DNA of 64,000 nt from an uncultured Myxococcales bacterium (lineage in GTDB: Bacteria > Myxococcota_A > UBA9042 > DTJE01): the NCBI GenBank assembly GCA_903936705.1, contig CAIZWN010000005.1:123883-187882 (forward strand), in the 5' to 3' direction. Each line of letters starts with the position of its first letter. Position 1 is the first letter of the stretch. Position numbers and translations under genes: made by a program. Below, one piece after another: positions 255 through 26,028 of this stretch. Below the pieces are notes generated by a model. That model had not been told where the DNA came from and made no database searches. It saw only the letters and a program-made list of their open reading frames with translations.

Positions 255-1907
255 ATGATTCTTACCTGTCGCGCACTACCGTTTCTTGTAACCGCGTGTC
301 TCGTTGCGGCTCAACTGATGTGCATGAACCAGGCCAGCGCTTGTACATCCTACCTTGTCACCAAGGGCGCTTCCGCCGATGGTTCAACGATGATCACCTA
401 CTCCGCCGACTCGCACACCCTTTACGGCGACCTGACGGTCATCCCGGGCGGCGTGCACGTGCCTGGCGAGACCATTCCCGTCTACGACTGGGACTCGGGT
501 CGATTCCTGGGCCGCATCCCGCAGGCGCCTGTCACCTATTCAGTTGTGGGCCTCATCAACGAGCATCAGGTTGCCATCGGCGAAACGACGTTCGGGGGAA
601 GGAAGGAACTGGTTGATCCGAAAGGCGTGGTGGACTACGGCAGCCTGATGCGCCTGGCCTTGCAGCGGTCAAAGACGGCACGCGAAGCAATCGGCGTCAT
701 GACGTCTCTGGCAGAGACCCACGGGTACGCCAGCGAAGGCGAGTCATTCAGCATTGGCGACCCGAACGAAGCGTGGATCCTCGAGATGGTTGGCAAGGGG
801 CCCGACGGCAAGGGCGCTCTGTGGGTCGCAGTACGCGTTCCCGACGGCTTCGTAAGTGCACACGCGAACATGGCCCGCATACGGAAGTTTCCGCAGAAAG
901 ATCCCAAAAACGCGATCTTCTCGAAGGACGTCATACGGTACGCGAGGGACAAGGGCTGGTTCAAAGGCAACGATTCCGACTTCAGCTTTGCTGACGCCTT
1001 CTACCCGCGGTCCTTTGGCGGGATGCGTTTTTGCGACAGCCGCGTGTGGCGCTTCTTCATGCGCGTGGCCCCGGCACTGGGGCTTCCAACCGACTGGATC
1101 AAGGGAGTCGCAGGCGCTCAGCCGTTGCCCATGTGGGTGAAACCGGAACGCAAGCTGACTGCACGAGACGTGATGGAACTGATGCGCGACCACTTCGAGG
1201 GCACTGAATTCGACTTGTCGAAGGGTGTCGGCGCCGGGCCGTTCGGACTGCCCTACCGATGGCGACCGCTGTCGTGGGAGTACGAGGGCAAGAAGTACTT
1301 CAACGAGCGATCAGCATCAACCCAGCAGACAGGTTTTTCGTTTGTGACGCAATCGCGAGGCTGGCTGCCGGGCGCCATTGGCGGCCTGATCTGGTTCGGG
1401 GTGGATGACACCTGGCTGACAGTCTATCTGCCCATGTACGCTGGCATCCGCGAGGCTCCGCATGCATTTGCCGAGGGTACTGGATCGTTCAAGCAGTTCA
1501 GTTGGGATTCGGCATTCTGGGTTTTCAACGCGGTGTCCAATCTTGCGTATTCGAGATGGTCGGACATCTCGATCGACGTGCGTGACGCACAGGCAGCGTT
1601 GGAAGGATCGTTTTCTGCCGCGGTTGCCGAAGCCGACATTGCCGCTGTCGAAAAATACAAGAAGGCCCCTGGCCTGGCCCGTGACTACCTGACTGCGTTC
1701 AGCGCCACCCAGACCGATCGCACGATGACCCGCTGGCGCGCCCTGTTCACCGAACTGCTGGTGAAGTACCTTGACGGCAACGTCCGAGACCCACTGGGCG
1801 AGGTCAAGCACCCGCCGTACCCGAAGGAGTGGTACGGACGCATCCTCGACGACCGACCCGGGGTTTTCGAGGTAAAGAAAATCCCTGGTGAGCAGGACGA
1901 ACAGTGA
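255..1907 (+). CDS. Secreted C69-family dipeptidase
   Basis: N-terminal signal peptide followed by the catalytic Cys context ACTSYLVTKGASADGS typical of peptidase C69; 550 aa. Confidence 0.8.
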   Translation: MILTCRALPFLVTACLVAAQLMCMNQASACTSYLVTKGASADGSTMITYSADSHTLYGDLTVIPGGVHVPGETIPVYDWDSGRFLGRIPQAPVTYSVVGLINEHQVAIGETTFGGRKELVDPKGVVDYGSLMRLALQRSKTAREAIGVMTSLAETHGYASEGESFSIGDPNEAWILEMVGKGPDGKGALWVAVRVPDGFVSAHANMARIRKFPQKDPKNAIFSKDVIRYARDKGWFKGNDSDFSFADAFYPRSFGGMRFCDSRVWRFFMRVAPALGLPTDWIKGVAGAQPLPMWVKPERKLTARDVMELMRDHFEGTEFDLSKGVGAGPFGLPYRWRPLSWEYEGKKYFNERSASTQQTGFSFVTQSRGWLPGAIGGLIWFGVDDTWLTVYLPMYAGIREAPHAFAEGTGSFKQFSWDSAFWVFNAVSNLAYSRWSDISIDVRDAQAALEGSFSAAVAEADIAAVEKYKKAPGLARDYLTAFSATQTDRTMTRWRALFTELLVKYLDGNVRDPLGEVKHPPYPKEWYGRILDDRPGVFEVKKIPGEQDEQ

Positions 1908-18115: not shown

Positions 18116-18309
18116 TCAACTTGGCAGAAGGCGTTTCAACTCGGCCACGGTGCGTTCGGCAGTGGCCAGGATCGCAAGAACCTCCTCGCCTGCTGGCAAT
18201 GGAAAAGGGTCACGTCCGGATAACCGTCGAGCAGCATTCGTGCGGCTCCAAGGTCCTGGTCGGCCTTCGCCAGCCAAGCAAGGGCTTCAGAGGTGCGAGC
18301 ATCAAGCGG
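18116..18309 (-). pseudogene. HEPN-domain toxin-like gene partnered with the MNT below; apparently frameshifted or truncated
   Basis: MPLDARTSEALAWLAKADQDLGAARMLLDGYPDVTLFHCQQA matches HEPN helices 1-2; a +1-frame continuation GEEVLAILATAERTVAELKRLL follows a frame break near 18181-18195. Confidence 0.45.
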
Positions 18310-18613
18310 CATGCAGTAGCACCCCCTCGCGAACAACGGTCGCGGGTAGCGACGCCCTTGCACCCAGGCGCTTCTGGAATTCCGACTCAGACCATACCAA
18401 GACGTCAACCGCTGCTGGAACGCCCCACAGCGCGTCGCACGCATCCATCTCCCGTCGGTGGGCCGGCGTGGCAGAGTCGGCGACGACCATGAGGACATCG
18501 TAATCCGAGTCCAACGTCGCTTCGCCTCTTGCTCTGGAGCCAAACAGGTAGACCCGTGAAGGGCGGAACCGTGCCACCAGCCTTTCGACGATCTCCTGGA
18601 GAATCGGGTCCAT
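18302..18613 (-). CDS. Minimal nucleotidyltransferase (MNT) antitoxin-like protein
   Basis: GS..G......D.D NTase motif (LFGSRARGEATLDSDYDVLMV); 8-bp overlap with the downstream HEPN reading frame. Confidence 0.7.
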   Translation of the reverse strand: MDPILQEIVERLVARFRPSRVYLFGSRARGEATLDSDYDVLMVVADSATPAHRREMDACDALWGVPAAVDVLVWSESEFQKRLGARASLPATVVREGVLLHAA

Positions 18614-19039
18614 ACCCAAGCCCTCGAATCGGAACAGAATGGTAAGCCTTGCCTCAACTTCAGTCCAGTCGTCGTACGATTCGCGCCACTCGCGGCTGAT
18701 TCCCCAGCCGAGAGCTCCGCTGCGCAACTGGGAAAGACCGACTAATGGTCGCCAGGTCGTGCAGTACGACTTCACGGTGTACGAATTCACGGCATCCATT
18801 GGGCCTCGCTGACACCGTCCCACGCGATCGCTGTTCTTGTCTGTCCAACGGCGTTGCGCGTCAGCGGCAACCCCCGGTGCAGCCGCAGGCGGCATCCGGC
18901 GCGGTCCCTGCGGCCCCGCCCGAGGAAGCCATTCGAATCACCCCGGAGGTTGCGGCGGGGCCAAAGCAGGGACCGTGACGGAAGGGGTTTGTCCGTTGAA
19001 CGCGCTTGTTGTCCAGTCCGTCCGATACTGCGGTTCTTC

Positions 19040-20228: not shown

Positions 20229-22367
20229 ATGCACTCTGACCCGCCCCCAGGGAACGCCGGACGCCTGCTGCCGCAGAACGCCTATCGCAAGCTGGAGCCT
20301 GGCGAACAGTACCAGCCGATTGTCCCAGCGGCCAGCCGGATGGCCGAGACCACACCCTGGTCGATCGGCCTCGGCCTGCTGATGGTCGTCATCTTCTCGG
20401 CCGCCTGCGTATACATCGCCCTGCGCGCCGGCAGCGGCATCGAGGCCGCCATCCCCATCGCGGTAGCCGCCATATTCTTCGGCCGCATGCGTAAGACTCG
20501 CAGTACCATCCTCGAAAACGTCATCGTCCAGTCGGTCGGCCAGGCGTCGGGCGTGGTCGCGGCCGGTGCGGCCTTCGTCATCCCGGCACTGTACCTGAAC
20601 CAAGTGACACCCGCCTGGTGGCAGATCTTCCTGGCCTGTTTCATCGGCGGCGCCCTGGGCGTCGTGCTGATCATCCCGCTGCGCAAGTACTTCGTCGCCG
20701 AACGCCACGGTGAACTGCCATTCCCCGAGGCCACCGCCATCAACGAAATTCTGGTGTCCGGCGAGTCCTCGGGCGGCGGCGCAGGCAAGGTCCTGCTGGC
20801 GTCATTCGGCCTGGGCGCGGCCTACGATTTCGCTGTCGAGGTGGTCCACGCCTGGAACCCGGCATTGACCACGCGAACGCTGCTGGGCGACGCGGGCCAA
20901 TGGCTGTACGACTTCCGCGTCGAGATGAAGATGAACGCCATCGCGGCGCTGTTCGGGCTGGGCTATATCATCGGAGTGAAGTATGCCGCCATCATCATGG
21001 CCGGCAGCCTCCTTGCCTACACGGTAATGGTCCCGCTGGTCTTCCTGGTTGGCGGGCAGGCGGGCACGATCACGTCTGCCGGCGTCGTCTATACCGTTTC
21101 GCAAATGAGCGCCCAGGCGATATTCACGGCCTTCATCAAGCCCATCGCCATCGGCGCCATCGCCACGGCAGGCGTCATCGGGCTGATCCGCATGGGCCGA
21201 ATCATCGTCGGATCCGTCTCGCTGGGCTTCAAGGGCCTTGCCCACAAGGGTCTCGACGGCGCCCAGCGCACCGAACGTGATCTGCCCCCGTCGCAGGTCC
21301 TGTTGATCCAGCTTGGAGCCGTTCTCGCAATGGGCCTTTTGTTCTTCGTCGTCTGCATCGGGGCCGGCGGCTACGACATCGGCCAGGCCGCGCTGTACTC
21401 GGTTATCGGCATGCTGATCTCGTTCCTGCTGTGCTTCTTGTTCACGCCGGTGGCGGCCGAAGCCATCGCGATCGTCGGCACAAACCCGGTTTCCGGCATG
21501 ACTCTGGTCACCGTAGTCCTGGCCTCGCTGGTGATGACCGGCGTTGGCCTGTCGGGATCGACCGGCATCTTCGTTGCGCTGGTCATTGGCACCGCAGTCT
21601 ACACCGCACTGTCGGTCGCGGGCGGCCTGATCTCGGACTTCAAGGTCGGCTATTGGATCGGCGCCACCCCGCGCCGGCAGCAGGGATGGAAGTTCCTGGG
21701 CCTGTTCATCGCCGCGCTGGTGTGCGCGTTCGTCATCCCGGTCATGGACCAGGGATACCACTTCCTGGTCGAAAAGGGCGGCGTGATGGTCAGCAACGAG
21801 GACGTCCTGCCCGCGCCCCAGGCAAACATGATCGCGGCCGTCGTGCGCGGCCTGATGACCGGCGCCGAGCAGCCATACCTGCTGTACGGCCTGGGCGTCA
21901 TCATCAGCCTGCTGATCACGATGGCAGGCGTGCCAACGCTGGCCTTCGCGCTGGGCATGTACCTCCCCATCAGCATCAACTCGGTGATGCTGGCCGGCGG
22001 CGCTGTCGCGTGGCTGGTCGAACGTTCCGGAAAAACCCCTGAAGAACGCGAAGCCCGTACTGGCCAGGGCACACTGATCGCGTCAGGCATGATGGCCGGA
22101 GCAGCGATCATCGGCATCGTGTCAGCCGTACTGCGCCTGGACTGGACCTCCTATGCCATCAGGTTCCTCAGCGTGGGCATCGACTATGAAGTCGTCTCGA
22201 CGGCAGCCGGGGTAACGACCCTGAAGGAAACCCCAATGCCCTGGTACGAAGGCTTCACCGGCCAGGCGCTAAGCCTGGGCATGTTCGTCGCCCTGATCGT
22301 CGCAACCTACCTGCTGGCCCGCTGGGGCGCCGCAATGCAGCGCAAGGAATCCGGGGGGAAGAAGTAG
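20229..22367 (+). CDS. OPT-family oligopeptide transporter
   Basis: About 16 TM helices; N-terminal YRKLEPGEQYQPIVP and overall architecture typical of bacterial OPT (TIGR00728-like) proteins. Confidence 0.7.
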   Translation: MHSDPPPGNAGRLLPQNAYRKLEPGEQYQPIVPAASRMAETTPWSIGLGLLMVVIFSAACVYIALRAGSGIEAAIPIAVAAIFFGRMRKTRSTILENVIVQSVGQASGVVAAGAAFVIPALYLNQVTPAWWQIFLACFIGGALGVVLIIPLRKYFVAERHGELPFPEATAINEILVSGESSGGGAGKVLLASFGLGAAYDFAVEVVHAWNPALTTRTLLGDAGQWLYDFRVEMKMNAIAALFGLGYIIGVKYAAIIMAGSLLAYTVMVPLVFLVGGQAGTITSAGVVYTVSQMSAQAIFTAFIKPIAIGAIATAGVIGLIRMGRIIVGSVSLGFKGLAHKGLDGAQRTERDLPPSQVLLIQLGAVLAMGLLFFVVCIGAGGYDIGQAALYSVIGMLISFLLCFLFTPVAAEAIAIVGTNPVSGMTLVTVVLASLVMTGVGLSGSTGIFVALVIGTAVYTALSVAGGLISDFKVGYWIGATPRRQQGWKFLGLFIAALVCAFVIPVMDQGYHFLVEKGGVMVSNEDVLPAPQANMIAAVVRGLMTGAEQPYLLYGLGVIISLLITMAGVPTLAFALGMYLPISINSVMLAGGAVAWLVERSGKTPEEREARTGQGTLIASGMMAGAAIIGIVSAVLRLDWTSYAIRFLSVGIDYEVVSTAAGVTTLKETPMPWYEGFTGQALSLGMFVALIVATYLLARWGAAMQRKESGGKK

Positions 22368-22377
22368 GGGGTGCCCA

Positions 22378-22572
22378 GTGAGCGCGAAGGGACCGGACGT
22401 CTTTGCCCTGCGGGACGCGGTAGTCGGCGACTACCGGAAGTTCGCGACGTCGTTCACGACCATCTACGCGGACGACATCGTGGAGAAGCGGGACAGGAAG
22501 GCGTTCGGCTCGTACCGCACGAAGGATCTGATCCTGGCGGCCTACCAGCGCCTGGAGCGAGGTGCCACGTGA
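22378..22572 (+). CDS. Small hypothetical protein (64 aa), translationally coupled to the downstream gene
   Basis: GTG start; its stop TGA overlaps the GTG start of the next gene (GTGA at 22569-22572); no recognisable domain. Confidence 0.4.
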   Translation: MSAKGPDVFALRDAVVGDYRKFATSFTTIYADDIVEKRDRKAFGSYRTKDLILAAYQRLERGAT

Positions 22573-24230
22573 CCAGTGAACTTGAGGGCCAGGTCATCGA
22601 TCGCAAATCCCTGCGCGTGGTGACTGGCAGAGCCGCCGACTTCCAGGCGCTGGCCAACGACTGCGTGTGCTTCGCCAACAGCGCCGGAGGTACCTTGCTC
22701 ATCGGGATCGAGGACGAGGAGACCCACCCACCGCCGGACCAGCGGGTGGACCCGGCCCTCCTCGACCGCATCCGCAAGCGCATCGGGGAACTGACCGTCA
22801 ACGTCCAGGTGCTCCCGGAACTGGCCAGGGACGACAACGGCGGCGATTACATCCTGCTCCAGATACCGCGGTCTATGGGCGTGGCTTCGACCAGCGACGG
22901 TCGTTACTTCCTGCGAGTCGGCGACACCTGCCGCCCGGTCACCGGCGATGATGTGCTCCGCCTCGCAGATGAACGCCCGTCCGTCCCCTGGGAAACGATG
23001 ACCTCGCTGGGTGCGAAGGTGTCCGAGGTCGACCCGGCACAGGTTGGCCGGTTGACCGCGCGGCTCCGCGCTTCGGACCGGGTCAAGGACTCCGTGAAGG
23101 AGAAGTCTGACGGCGAGCTACTTGAACACTACAGGCTGGCCACCTCGGATGTCATGACGAACCTGGGCATCCTGCTGGTGGGTCGGCCGGCCAACCGGGC
23201 CCGGCTGGGGACAGCGCCAATTGTCCAAGCGATCCGATACGACGACCGGGGCGTGAAGGTCGGCAAGTTCGTCTGGGACGACTACGAGTTGTCTCCCTTC
23301 GAGCTGATCGACGCGATCTGGGCCAGCGTCCCCGACTTCAGGGAGAGCTACGAGTTCCCGGACGGCATGTTCCGGACAGCCGTGCCGGCGTTCGACGAGG
23401 CCGTCGTTCGGGAATTGCTGGTGAATGCCCTGGTGCACCGGCCGTACACGCAGCGAGGCGACATCTTCCTGAATCTCCACCCCGACCGGATGGAGGTCGT
23501 GAACCCTGGCCGACTGCCGCTGGGCGTCACCCCTAAGAACATCCTACACGCGAGCCGGCGCCGTAACGATGGGCTGGCCCGCATGTTCCACGACCTGAAG
23601 CTGATGGAGCGCGAAGGCAGCGGGTTCGACCTGATGTACGAGAAGTTGCTTGGCAGCGGGCGGACCGCGCCAGTCGTCACGGAGGGAGTGGACTCCGTGC
23701 ACGTCACCATCCCCCGGCGACTCGTTCACCCTGGGACCATCCGGTTGCTGTCCGACACCGACCAAAGGTTCCAGTTGACGCGGAGGGAGAGGATCGTCCT
23801 CGCGCTGCTGGCACAGTCCGAGGGGCTCAAGGCGTCGGAATTCGTGGACCGTCTGGAGCTGAATGACACGGAGAACATTCGTTACTGGCTGGGCCGCCTG
23901 ACCGACCTGGGCCTGGTAAGGCAGGTCGGACGGACCCGGGCCACCCGGTACTTCGTGGAGCCGGGCGTCCTCAAAGCCGCCGGGCTGGACGCGGTAACCA
24001 CGCTGACCAGGGTTGAATCATACCGCGTACAGGCGCTAATCCTTGAGGACCTAGGGCGCTACCCCGACTCGGCCATCTCCGAGATTCATCGCAGGATCGG
24101 GTCGGAGATTCCGCTGCGTCTGGTCCGTCGCGCTCTTGCAAGCCTGCTCGACGATAAGCGGATCCTGCCCCTCGGGGACCGCCGTTGGCGCAAGTATCGG
24201 CCGGCACCGCCTATTGACCGGGAACGATGA
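22569..24230 (+). CDS. AlbA_2 (divergent AAA/Schlafen-like) + HATPase_c_4 + winged-helix protein; putative DNA-binding regulator or defence-associated ATPase
   Basis: CFANSAGGTLLIGIEDE (AlbA_2 core); RELLVNALVHRPY...NPG...RRRN..LARMFHDLKLMEREGSGFD (HATPase_c_4 signature); C-terminal wHTH; annotated ORF upstream of 22569 is out-of-frame read-through. Confidence 0.7.
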   Translation: MTSELEGQVIDRKSLRVVTGRAADFQALANDCVCFANSAGGTLLIGIEDEETHPPPDQRVDPALLDRIRKRIGELTVNVQVLPELARDDNGGDYILLQIPRSMGVASTSDGRYFLRVGDTCRPVTGDDVLRLADERPSVPWETMTSLGAKVSEVDPAQVGRLTARLRASDRVKDSVKEKSDGELLEHYRLATSDVMTNLGILLVGRPANRARLGTAPIVQAIRYDDRGVKVGKFVWDDYELSPFELIDAIWASVPDFRESYEFPDGMFRTAVPAFDEAVVRELLVNALVHRPYTQRGDIFLNLHPDRMEVVNPGRLPLGVTPKNILHASRRRNDGLARMFHDLKLMEREGSGFDLMYEKLLGSGRTAPVVTEGVDSVHVTIPRRLVHPGTIRLLSDTDQRFQLTRRERIVLALLAQSEGLKASEFVDRLELNDTENIRYWLGRLTDLGLVRQVGRTRATRYFVEPGVLKAAGLDAVTTLTRVESYRVQALILEDLGRYPDSAISEIHRRIGSEIPLRLVRRALASLLDDKRILPLGDRRWRKYRPAPPIDRER

Positions 24231-24385
24231 GAGTGTCCAATAGACGCGGTCAATGGAGCGGCAGACTTATTGAAAAGACTTGGTTTTCTATTGAAGCGTT
24301 TCCGGGCGAGTTGGTGGTCAATGGGCAGGACGTTCAATAGAAACCGTCCGATCGAAGGGAGTCCCACCGCACGACGGAGGTTGAG

Positions 24386-24619
24386 ATGATCCCGCCCCTG
24401 CCGCCGCTGAAGGTGACGCTGCTGGAGAAGGCCGCCGCGGACAACGGGTTCGATCTACCGCTGGCCCGGGACGCGAACTGGCTGGGGTTTGCCAAAACCC
24501 ATGCGCCCATGAAGTTGTTCTTGCTGGGCCTGGCTGCGCCGCTGAAGGTCCGAACCCTTTGCAAAAGCCATCGGAGCTACTTGCCGTGGCACCGAGAGCG
24601 GGTGTTCAAGGGGTCGTGA
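24386..24619 (+). CDS. Small hypothetical protein (77 aa)
   Basis: Strong RBS GGAGGttgagATG; no known domain. Confidence 0.3.
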   Translation: MIPPLPPLKVTLLEKAAADNGFDLPLARDANWLGFAKTHAPMKLFLLGLAAPLKVRTLCKSHRSYLPWHRERVFKGS

Positions 24620-24688
24620 CGTCGAGGTCGGTTTCGACGTGCCAACTGGCACCCATCTAACGCCCCCTTCGTCCCTCGCATACAACCG

Positions 24689-25738
24689 CTAGTCCTTCCG
24701 GTCCTTGCCCCCCAGCCATCCCTGGCGGCGAAACCACCAAAGCATCGATCCGGCGGATCCTAGAATGAGCGTCCAGAAGAAGGGATAGCCATATCGCCAG
24801 GACAATTCCGGCATGTTGAAGGGCGAATCCTCGGCATGGAAATTCATGCCATAGACACTCGCCAGGAACGACAACGGCATGAACAGCGTGGCGATGATCG
24901 TCAGAACCTTCATGATGGCGTTCAGACGGTTTCCAACCGAGGACTGGAAAGCCTCCATCAGGCTGGAACCGATCTCGCGATACGTCTCGATCATGTCCAA
25001 CACCTGGACGGAATGGTCCAGGCAGTCTCGCAGGAAGTCGCGCGTGCCAGGCGTTATCAACGAGGAATCCTCGCGCAGCAGCGACGCCAGCGCGTCCCGC
25101 AGCGGCCACGTGGCTCGCCGCAGGGCCAACAGGTCTCGCTTGATCTGGTGAATCGCTGGGATGCACTCGTTGGATGGCCGGTCCAGGATCGAGTCCTCCA
25201 GGACGTCCATGCGTTCGCCGAAGGCCTCCAGCACCGGGAAGTACCCGTCCACCACGGCGTCCAGCAGCGCCCACGCAAGGTAGTCAGCGCCGCCGGCACG
25301 CAGGCGCGTTGCTCCAGCACGCAGACGATCCCGAACACTGGACAGGCAGTCACCTGGGCGCCGCTGCTGGAAGGTCAGCACGAATCCTGGCCCCAGAAAC
25401 ATCGACAACTGCTCGGATTCCAGACGATCCTGGGCGGCGAACAGCATTCGGGCGACAACGAACAGGTGCCCGTCATAGCGCTCGGCCTTCGGGCGCTGCG
25501 TGGGATTCAAGACGTCTTCCTGAGCCAGAATGTGCATGTCAAAAACGGACGCGATACGCTGGACGGTCGTGGCATCACCGACCCCATCGACATCGACCCA
25601 GGTAACGGGGCGACGGCCTCTCCAGGATGAGATCTCGTCTGGACTGGAAAGAACGGCTTCCTCGATCGCGTCGGGTCCATAACTGAAAACGCGGATGACC
25701 GGCGGCACGACAGGTTCCGGCACCGGACTTCCGGGCAT
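24689..25738 (-). CDS. corA: CorA-family Mg2+/Co2+ transporter
   Basis: YGMNF signature followed by two C-terminal TM helices; ORF extends to 25894 with a Pro-rich extension (start uncertain). Confidence 0.8.
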   Translation of the reverse strand: MPGSPVPEPVVPPVIRVFSYGPDAIEEAVLSSPDEISSWRGRRPVTWVDVDGVGDATTVQRIASVFDMHILAQEDVLNPTQRPKAERYDGHLFVVARMLFAAQDRLESEQLSMFLGPGFVLTFQQRRPGDCLSSVRDRLRAGATRLRAGGADYLAWALLDAVVDGYFPVLEAFGERMDVLEDSILDRPSNECIPAIHQIKRDLLALRRATWPLRDALASLLREDSSLITPGTRDFLRDCLDHSVQVLDMIETYREIGSSLMEAFQSSVGNRLNAIMKVLTIIATLFMPLSFLASVYGMNFHAEDSPFNMPELSWRYGYPFFWTLILGSAGSMLWWFRRQGWLGGKDRKD

Positions 25739-26028
25739 AGCGGCGCCGGGAACCGCACTTGAGCCTCCCGACCCGATCGGAACCCCAGGCTCGGGTGGCG
25801 ACGCCCGTCGGTCCGGCAGCGCAAACCATCGGCGGTAGTGGCGAAGGTCCATGTGTCGCCCCTGTAGGTTGGCGCGATCGTAGACCGGATCCACCCAGAC
25901 TATCCAGTGGACATGTATTCTCGGTCTTTCGACACGGCGTAATCAGGCCCCAGAACGTCAGGAAAGCACCGACTGACAGGAAATTCCAACTACTCCGCCG
26001 TCCGCACCAGGGTTTTGAATGCGCGGGT

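Follow-up and report, generated by a model that had tools for sequence, protein, structure and literature searches.

The question raised by this locus is why a complete gene for an AlbA_2/HATPase_c_4/winged helix-turn-helix (wHTH) protein stands between two small open reading frames (ORFs) of 64 and 77 aa and runs into a spacer rich in short repeats. The locus lies in a 64-kb stretch of DNA from an uncultured Myxococcales bacterium (contig CAIZWN010000005.1), called the window here, where it is flanked by genes for an OPT oligopeptide transporter and for CorA. The central gene encodes a bacterial Schlafen (pSlfn) protein with a GHKL ATPase-type domain and two winged helices. We consider it probable that the window holds the relic of a defence island, and that in intact islands the pSlfn–GHKL–wHTH protein binds the repeats as its DNA sites and probably gates the defence gene behind them.

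The same array was found behind homologous genes, whose loci are given here by L numbers. In a census, 68 of 84 loci carried at least three copies of one clade-specific 9-mer between −50 and +170 of the AlbA_2 stop codon. The array spanned the final ~30 nt of the AlbA_2 gene and ~100 nt downstream, with 3–6 copies of a 9–10-nt half-site. Its sequence varied by clade, and the order, orientation and spacing of the copies were conserved (classes in Table 1). Copy 1, and in the A classes also copy 2, lay within the last codons of the gene or at the stop codon. Next came an A+T-richer gap of 35–60 nt, a second inverted repeat (half-site–N12–14–half-site), and one further copy. Of the exact copies in the ±6 kb of the 68 loci, 147 lay no more than 250 nt from the stop and 3 lay farther away. 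Bare copy counts in the spacer were only modestly above controls (3.9 versus 2.6–2.8); the strong signal was positional regularity and motif exclusivity. The class B sequence TAAAGGACA was kept across distant taxa. Spacers in front of HNH_2 genes (L010, L012, L018, L020, L031) showed the same layout with a related motif, GG(T/C)CGATAGA.

About half of the loci had a co-directional defence gene that starts 40–250 nt past the array. The genes behind it encoded HsdR (L061, L044), HsdM (L070, L089), a PLD–SNF2 helicase (L068), DruE-like helicases (L029 and others), or HNH_2 proteins. On an Aeromonas IncU plasmid, the RefSeq annotation gave an 'ATP-binding protein' followed by hsdM, hsdS, and hsdR of a type I restriction-modification (R-M) system. 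The original prediction, which had assigned such proteins to defence contexts, was thus borne out by homologues adjoining type I R-M, DruE/DISARM-like, and HNH genes.

Two side observations concern the sites themselves. Where hsdR follows (L050–L062, L065, L071, L075, L076, L078, L080, L084, L086, L087), the site nearest to its start codon was a hybrid, TGTCC(A/G)ATAGA, or GAGCCAATAGG in C-class loci, ~90–160 nt after the AlbA_2 stop. This hybrid was present in 20 of the 39 B and C loci, compared with a background of 0.057 per kb. The half-site form suggests a bipartite element, of five variable nucleotides followed by (A/G)ATAGA, and its parts may perhaps be read by different domains. The second observation was made on plasmid pC of Rhizobium etli CIAT 652 (L173), where an orphan copy of the gene, named 'recGc' and annotated as an ATP-dependent DNA helicase, lies amid sugar-transport and metabolic genes with C-class (TTTGGCTCA) sites still behind it.

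The half-site class covaries with residues ~500–545 of winged helix 2. Pairs of proteins at least 80% identical over aa 10–480 were compared, 78 of them within a class and 51 between classes. Up to residue 500, both sets followed one identity profile. Over aa 501–520, identity was 0.88 in same-class and 0.49 in different-class pairs; over aa 521–540 the values were 0.69 and 0.47. The top mutual-information columns were 502, 503, 507, 512, 515–517, 529, and 534. In the AlphaFold2 (AF2) model, the 501–540 stretch forms helix 2, the turn, the recognition helix, and the wing of winged helix 2. Class signatures were seen at the start of the recognition helix (P-x-R-T-F, s-a-K-T-V, N-R-S-Q-L, P-Y-R-S-L) and in the wing (GERRWRRY, GETRARRF, GARNGARY).

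The closest relatives of the window gave the same picture. L007, the closest (83% identity overall), carries TAAAGGACA and not CTATTGACC; its protein is ~90% identical over aa 60–480, and 47% and 38% over aa 511–553. Against L091, the second-closest relative (77% identity), nucleotide identity was 70–93% over 22626–24005, 35–55% (random level) over 24066–24365, and 87% over 24426–24485. This collapse between conserved flanks points to the replacement of a cassette of about 300–320 bp. The case that winged helix 2 would read the half-sites is strong, though indirect.

In the window, six CTATTGACC-like half-sites were found in the order and orientation typical of the family. The degenerate half-site CYATTGAMC had four matches in the whole window, all in 24211–24340, with 1.49 expected per 64 kb. 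All three CAATAGA copies of the window lay in the spacer (24238 and 24335 on the plus strand, 24287 on the minus strand), as did both copies of GGTCAATGG (24248 and 24316). Raw motif counts were unremarkable (3 found versus 1.8 expected), and it is the clustering within 130 bp that exceeds chance. Half-site 4 comes after a 31-nt A+T-richer gap and forms with half-site 6 an 11-nt perfect inverted repeat (TTTCTATTGAA / TTCAATAGAAA). The original prediction had noticed both motifs; its minus-strand CAATAGA position was right, and its other positions (24237 and 24334 for CAATAGA, 24247 and 24315 for GGTCAATGG) were off by one. Its AT-rich spacer holds relative to the surroundings (G+C 0.53 against ~0.64), but not in absolute terms. 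It had named the absence of the motifs from orthologous spacers as its refutation; equivalents were present there.

Sites upstream of the AlbA_2 gene, as in classical autoregulation, were absent from the window and almost absent elsewhere. The exception was L023, which alone has a pair of exact class-B sites shortly before the AlbA_2 start codon (1744 and 1710 nt ahead of the stop), the place expected for a classical autoregulatory operator. A role of the repeats as recombination sites was considered and rejected: the neighbourhood lacks a recombinase, and the swapped block begins on its left at residue ~500, inside winged helix 2 and ~150–200 bp ahead of the first repeat.

Table 1. Features of the relic island in the window, domains of its protein, and array classes of homologous loci
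Feature	Position	Strand	Sequence	Remarks
OPT oligopeptide transporter gene	20229–22367	+		left neighbour of relic
64-aa ORF	22378–22572	+		GTG start; TGA 22570–22572
AlbA_2 gene	22569–24230	+		553 aa; GTG 22569–22571
Exchangeable cassette	24066–24385	+		coding region of winged-helix-2 HTH and wing, plus spacer
Half-site 1	24211–24219	+	CTATTGACC	in last AlbA_2 codons; equals −32 copy of intact A-class loci
Spacer	24231–24385			155 nt, repeat-bearing
Half-site 2	24235–24243	-	GTCCAATAG (reverse complement CTATTGGAC)	inverted repeat 1 with half-site 1
Half-site 3	24248–24256	-	GGTCAATGG (reverse complement CCATTGACC)	
Half-site 4	24288–24296	+	CTATTGAAG	degenerate; equals +44 copy of intact A-class loci
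Half-site 5	24316–24324	-	GGTCAATGG	
Half-site 6	24332–24340	-	GTTCAATAG (reverse complement CTATTGAAC)	
77-aa ORF	24386–24619	+		GGAGG at 24376–24380, 5 nt before ATG
CorA gene	24689–25894	-		right neighbour of relic
Winged helix 1	aa ~405–463			AF2 model
Winged helix 2	aa ~484–545			AF2 model; helices 484–497, 503–510, 516–528; wing 532–545
Class A array	−32(+), −9(−), +44(+), +66(−), +87(−) from stop		CTATCGGCC, CTATCGACC, CTATTGACC, TTCTGGCCA	
Class B array	about −19 or −31(+), +58(+), +78(−) from stop		TAAAGGACA	some loci +87 to +118(−)
Further classes			TTTGGCTCA, ATATCTGCC, CTATCGCCC	same plan

The gene in front of the array is intact. Its product matched SLFN_AlbA_2 (PF04326; 42.3 bits, cut-off 25.3, aa 10–124), HATPase_c_4 (PF13749; 62.8 bits, cut-off 26; GHKL-like domain at aa ~277–381), and HTH_27 (PF13463; 34.4 bits, cut-off 22.2). 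All three matches exceed the Pfam cut-offs and uphold the domain call of the original prediction; the length of 554 aa given there counted codons including the stop, and the protein has 553 residues. It carries a catalytic-type motif, E6-GQVI-D11-R-K13. In alignment A1, of 22 homologues, E6 and K13 were invariant and D11 was at least 90% conserved, and the 553-aa protein retained all ~160 invariant columns. Homologues numbered more than 5000, at about 60–83% identity, in many phyla. The AF2 model (predicted local distance difference test score 73) showed a Schlafen-like N-domain, a GHKL-like domain, and the two winged helices. Foldseek returned 3LMM, the N-domains of SLFN13/11/5/14, and histidine-kinase ATPase domains. 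PADLOC gave only weak partial matches of the protein to Argonaute-associated GHKL regions and assigned no defence system.

Among the homologues, a structure has been solved only for DIP2311 of Corynebacterium diphtheriae (PDB 3LMM; phmmer E 7e-18, Foldseek E 1e-26). Its overall domain order is the same as that of the 553-aa protein, but identity is only ~20%. DIP2311 is a structural-genomics entry without assigned function or DNA target, and Pfam names its domain 'DIP2311-like_C transcriptional regulator'. Bacterial Schlafen-domain proteins are a published defence class (Perez Taboada et al., Nat Microbiol 2026, PMC13056530). In that survey of 5,930 bacterial Schlafens, HisKinase fusions made up 34% and HisKinase–HTH forms 19.2%, 70% of pSlfn genes lay near defence genes, and the nuclease motif was defined as Ex4(E/D)xK (PMC13056530). 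The pSlfn–HisKinase–HTH class shares with the 553-aa protein its domain set and order, this motif, and the defence-island enrichment (PMC13056530). The same paper treats the fused domains as sensors of a tRNase effector and does not discuss DNA targets of the HTH (PMC13056530); the site array and its covariation with winged helix 2 are added here.

The ORF upstream of the gene is a deletion scar: ~33 codons of a DruE-like DEAD/Helicase_C/MZB helicase joined to ~31 codons of a DrmMI/type IIG-like N6-methyltransferase. By tblastn, residues 1–37 matched the start of the helicase, and residues 34–63 matched the methyltransferase near its C-end. The tail stretch corresponds to a conserved 29-letter segment, with 50–54% identity to the five intact loci L010, L018, L020, L023, and L025, and 58–65% to L166, L169, and L170. 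In a metagenome scan seeded by the 64-aa ORF, 76 loci matched residues 1–34/40 only (58–82% identity), three matched residues 34–64 only (58–65%), and none matched both halves. At least 25 of the head loci had a ~1,790-aa helicase beginning at the match, with the SNF2 and methyltransferase genes behind it; the tail matches sat at the methyltransferase end. A phmmer search against 1.84 billion representatives gave 99 hits which, the ORF itself excepted, fell within the first 60 residues and mostly ended near residue 40. Since head and tail come from two genes of one operon, the ORF is what remains after an in-frame deletion of ~12 kb, which removed the remainder of the helicase, the SNF2 gene, and most of the methyltransferase. 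The GTGA junction with the AlbA_2 start, claimed earlier and confirmed by the coordinates, recurs as the same 4-nt overlap in L091, L010, and L007, and is inherited from the ancestral methyltransferase/AlbA_2 junction.

The 77-aa ORF is an HNH_2 endonuclease gene after an in-frame internal deletion. Against the 261-aa HNH_2 protein of L010, its residues 7–62 had 46% identity with the N-terminus and its residues 46–75 had 47% identity with the C-terminus. In L091 the gene behind AlbA_2 begins MVPPLPPLKVTLLEKAAADNGFD, and its first 38 residues are 84% identical to the 77-aa ORF. The HNH domain of L010 lies at aa 154–207 (Pfam) or 126–223 (PADLOC); in alignment A2, ~178 codons including this whole domain region were absent from the 77-aa ORF. 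Pfam, PADLOC, and NCBIfam detected no HNH_2 domain (PF13391) in it, and a word-index search returned homologues of the 77-aa form only within the same population. The ribosome-binding site and start codon of this ORF are ancestral.

The original prediction had listed both ORFs as uncharacterised small partners of AlbA_2. The strong ribosome-binding site of the 77-aa ORF is real, but the partners are not: both ORFs are deletion chimeras, were not conserved in homologous loci, and gave no full-length homologue in protein databases. Pfam, PADLOC, and NCBIfam searches of the two returned nothing. The word-index search found nothing beyond their own population save one 97-aa fragment, which has its first ~31 residues in common with the 64-aa ORF and then continues like the large helicase. 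The PADLOC check proposed at the time found no system protein among the window ORFs; in homologue neighbourhoods it did find defence genes.

Those neighbourhoods show what the island may have looked like. In L010, a Deltaproteobacteria metagenome-assembled genome, the order is a DEAD/Helicase_C/MZB helicase (1,786 aa), an SNF2 helicase (923 aa), an N6_Mtase/Eco57I methyltransferase (1,336 aa), an inserted gene pair, AlbA_2, and HNH_2 (261 aa). PADLOC labelled these genes DruE-like, DpdE/DrmD-like, DrmMI/type IIG-like, PDC-M56A/B, and HNH. Among the relatives, DpdE was the better model for the SNF2 protein (E 1e-178, against 1e-77 for DrmD); the methyltransferase matched DrmMI (3e-63), and the helicase with its MZB domain matched DruE. 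In L091, a full methyltransferase gene overlaps the AlbA_2 start; in L007, a different 60-aa chimera lies upstream and ends in the same methyltransferase tail. DISARM class 1 and Druantia share with the intact relatives an MZB-type helicase, an SNF2 helicase, and an N6-adenine methyltransferase. Unlike those systems, the intact relatives have helicase and DUF1998 in one ~1,790-aa protein and an HNH_2 gene at the end of the island, and the PLD gene of DISARM (DrmC) was not seen in them (e.g., L010, L092). None of the DISARM/Druantia-type genes is intact in the window, where only the 33 helicase and 31 methyltransferase codons of the 64-aa ORF are left. Comparison of the loci indicates that DruE-like helicase–SNF2–methyltransferase islands decay repeatedly and sometimes spare the AlbA_2 gene.

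Several further observations were made on these islands. The gene pair inserted in L010 (8323–10004), behind the methyltransferase and ahead of AlbA_2, is a candidate defence pair of the PDC-M56A/B type and encodes an AAA_15/21 ATPase and a 164-aa protein. Helicase stubs of 31–88 aa were seen in decayed loci (L119, L155, L150, L144, L165, L135, L158), some of which could be assembly frameshifts. L119, L150, L144, and L165 keep only such stubs; in L119, the helicase head is followed by the C-part of the methyltransferase only. In L155, ~240 helicase residues are fused in frame to an HNH_2 C-terminus. A 68-aa excisionase/HTH_17-like gene (RLWKFQLSEVDEWVR) lies directly upstream of AlbA_2 on the Aeromonas veronii IncU plasmid NZ_CP121836.1 (L172, 8766–8972), and in L123 and L150 it immediately precedes the helicase gene. 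This gene, which bears no relation to the 64-aa ORF, is a true small companion of intact modules.

At least 17 contigs, taken from independent assemblies of ENA, Logan, JGI, and NCBI, show the same arrangement as in the window, which excludes an assembly artefact. The 64-aa ORF starts 10 nt past the OPT stop (gap 22368–22377), and sequence 5' of the helicase start loses conservation among related loci. As no promoter of its own is visible, the relic may rely on read-through from the OPT gene. The window has no tRNA or tmRNA gene that could serve as an attachment site. On the minus strand at 18136–18895, 3.5 kb upstream of the relic, lies a gene for an MNT-type nucleotidyltransferase (PF01909/PF18765). 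Only the first ~35 positions of a HEPN profile follow it (E 0.006), and this remnant is probably another decayed toxin-antitoxin pair.

Taken as a mechanism, the island would have been a horizontally acquired phage-defence cluster between the OPT and CorA genes, with the ancestral order DruE-like helicase, SNF2 gene, DrmMI-like methyltransferase, pSlfn–GHKL–wHTH gene, repeat array, and HNH_2. Two in-frame deletions removed the flanking genes, leaving the 64-aa and 77-aa scars around an intact central gene. The half-sites would be the cognate DNA sites of the second winged helix, on which a dimer or higher oligomer could sit across the two inverted repeats flanking the A+T-richer gap. More tentatively, this complex in intact islands might gate the next defence gene (HNH_2, hsdR/hsdM, or DruE-like), with repression or a roadblock as the likeliest mode. 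The Schlafen and GHKL domains would then serve as sensor and/or effector, and a signal there would lift the transcription block. In the window, the regulated gene would be dead and the sites would have begun to drift.

Several points weigh against the proposal that the protein gates its neighbour. The distance of the array is fixed to the AlbA_2 stop and not to the next gene, and the array persists where that gene is convergent or non-defence (L021, L032, Rhizobium pC). Because it is fixed in this way and kept in orphan copies, sites that belong to the protein are favoured over an operator of the next operon. A search for sigma-70 consensus promoters was negative for the spacer of the window and for three spacers of hsdR type, and one weak sigma-70 match, in L080, was no better than shuffles. 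The half-sites of the window are degenerate, with 1–2 mismatches and spacings 2–7 nt off canonical, which suggests drift after the downstream gene died. As the sites adjoin the coding region of winged helix 2, their covariation with it could in part stem from physical linkage, but linkage leaves unexplained why the switch starts just past the first helix of winged helix 2 (aa 484–497), where the part of the domain that reads DNA begins, and does so in many independent pairs. The tail match of the 64-aa ORF is short (30 aa, 50–65%) and significant only in small databases and with synteny. Finally, defence has been shown only for DUF262 and Ig-like pSlfn fusions, so that the HisKinase fusions in that screen evidently conferred none, and HisKinase–HTH was not among the tested architectures (PMC13056530).

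Part of this evidence fits a different explanation, in which the protein is a stand-alone Schlafen effector, a nuclease of tRNA or other RNA, and the repeats are a docking or sequestration platform or serve autoregulation, without being the operator of the neighbour. The anchoring of the array to the gene's own stop codon and its persistence in orphan copies speak for such an effector. Its conserved E6-x4-D11-x-K13 matches the pSlfn nuclease motif (PMC13056530), and the N-domain resembles the SLFN13/11/5/14 nuclease domains. The gene is also intact in several decayed islands (window, L007), and an independent function would explain its survival while the neighbours decay. We nevertheless regard this explanation as unlikely, as about half of the loci place a co-directional defence gene just behind the array, the HisKinase-type constructs assayed in E. 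coli evidently conferred no defence, which was seen with the DUF262 and Ig-like fusions only (PMC13056530), and sequestration of a nuclease on DNA has no precedent here.

It is much less probable that the inverted repeats act as RNA, forming alternative hairpins or an attenuator between AlbA_2 and the next gene. The complementarity of the arms is kept while the clade sequence changes, which resembles compensatory change, and one forward copy is followed by two reverse copies, either of which could pair with it. However, every locus uses one sequence for all its copies, even those that never pair, an identity that RNA stems do not need, and the same 9-mer TAAAGGACA recurs in distant taxa. There was no U-tract or terminator-like site; in the window region and in four related spacers, scans for intrinsic terminators, like those for sigma-70 promoters, stayed at the level of shuffled controls. 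Folding of the spacer was not distinctive against shuffles (z = −1.57), and Rfam gave no match in 22000–25000 at E ≤ 1. The covariation of the recognition helix is also unexplained by RNA pairing.

Least credible of all are the 64-aa and 77-aa ORFs as functional small partners coupled to or co-regulated with AlbA_2, such as an antitoxin or adaptor: both are open after in-frame deletions, have the 4-nt overlap and the strong ribosome-binding site respectively, and are identical in many contigs, but both are chimeras of large-gene ends without a full-length homologue in 1.84 billion representatives or 5.8 billion clusters, the closest AlbA_2 loci (L007, L091) differ upstream, the identity across contigs reflects one near-clonal population, and two in-frame scars would arise by chance in ~1/9 of cases, with other decayed loci out of frame.

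A protein that binds sites beside its gene and gates a defence operon, the reading that we prefer, has known counterparts. BrxR/CapW WYL regulators and the C proteins of R-M systems are HTH proteins that stand beside diverse defence operons with inverted-repeat operators near their own gene, and such a regulator-plus-operator unit moves between systems. As in an operator–regulator pair, the putative cognate sites adjoin the gene and are conserved across loci, and specificity residues covary with them. The 553-aa protein differs in having no WYL match in Pfam and in not being a small Xre-type C protein. The sites of BrxR and C proteins lie upstream of the regulator gene, whereas here they lie at and behind its 3' end. 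Moreover, unlike those regulators, it has Schlafen nuclease-type and GHKL ATPase-type domains, and no promoter was found.

The locus itself is an ordinary decayed island, and its two 'hypothetical proteins' are to be annotated as pseudogene remnants. The wider interest lies in the class to which the surviving gene belongs. Bacterial Schlafens were shown to be defence proteins only in 2025–2026, and their most frequent forms, HisKinase and HisKinase–HTH, have no known trigger, target, or role. The site array behind this common class is apparently undescribed in the literature searched. A clade-specific array matched to the recognition helix offers the HisKinase–HTH class a candidate DNA target and a simple specificity code, with a likely link to the control of type I R-M and helicase-based systems. 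We suggest, as a generalisation that we doubt slightly more than we believe, that pSlfn–GHKL–wHTH members sit on specific DNA sequences and act as gatekeepers of defence operons (type I R-M, DruE/DISARM-like, HNH). If this is true, each member would carry its own array, and specificity would be re-assorted by swapping the cassette of winged-helix-2 HTH and wing together with the sites. The family would then represent a class of defence-island regulator that is both new and very widespread, and that may couple operon control to a Schlafen nuclease.

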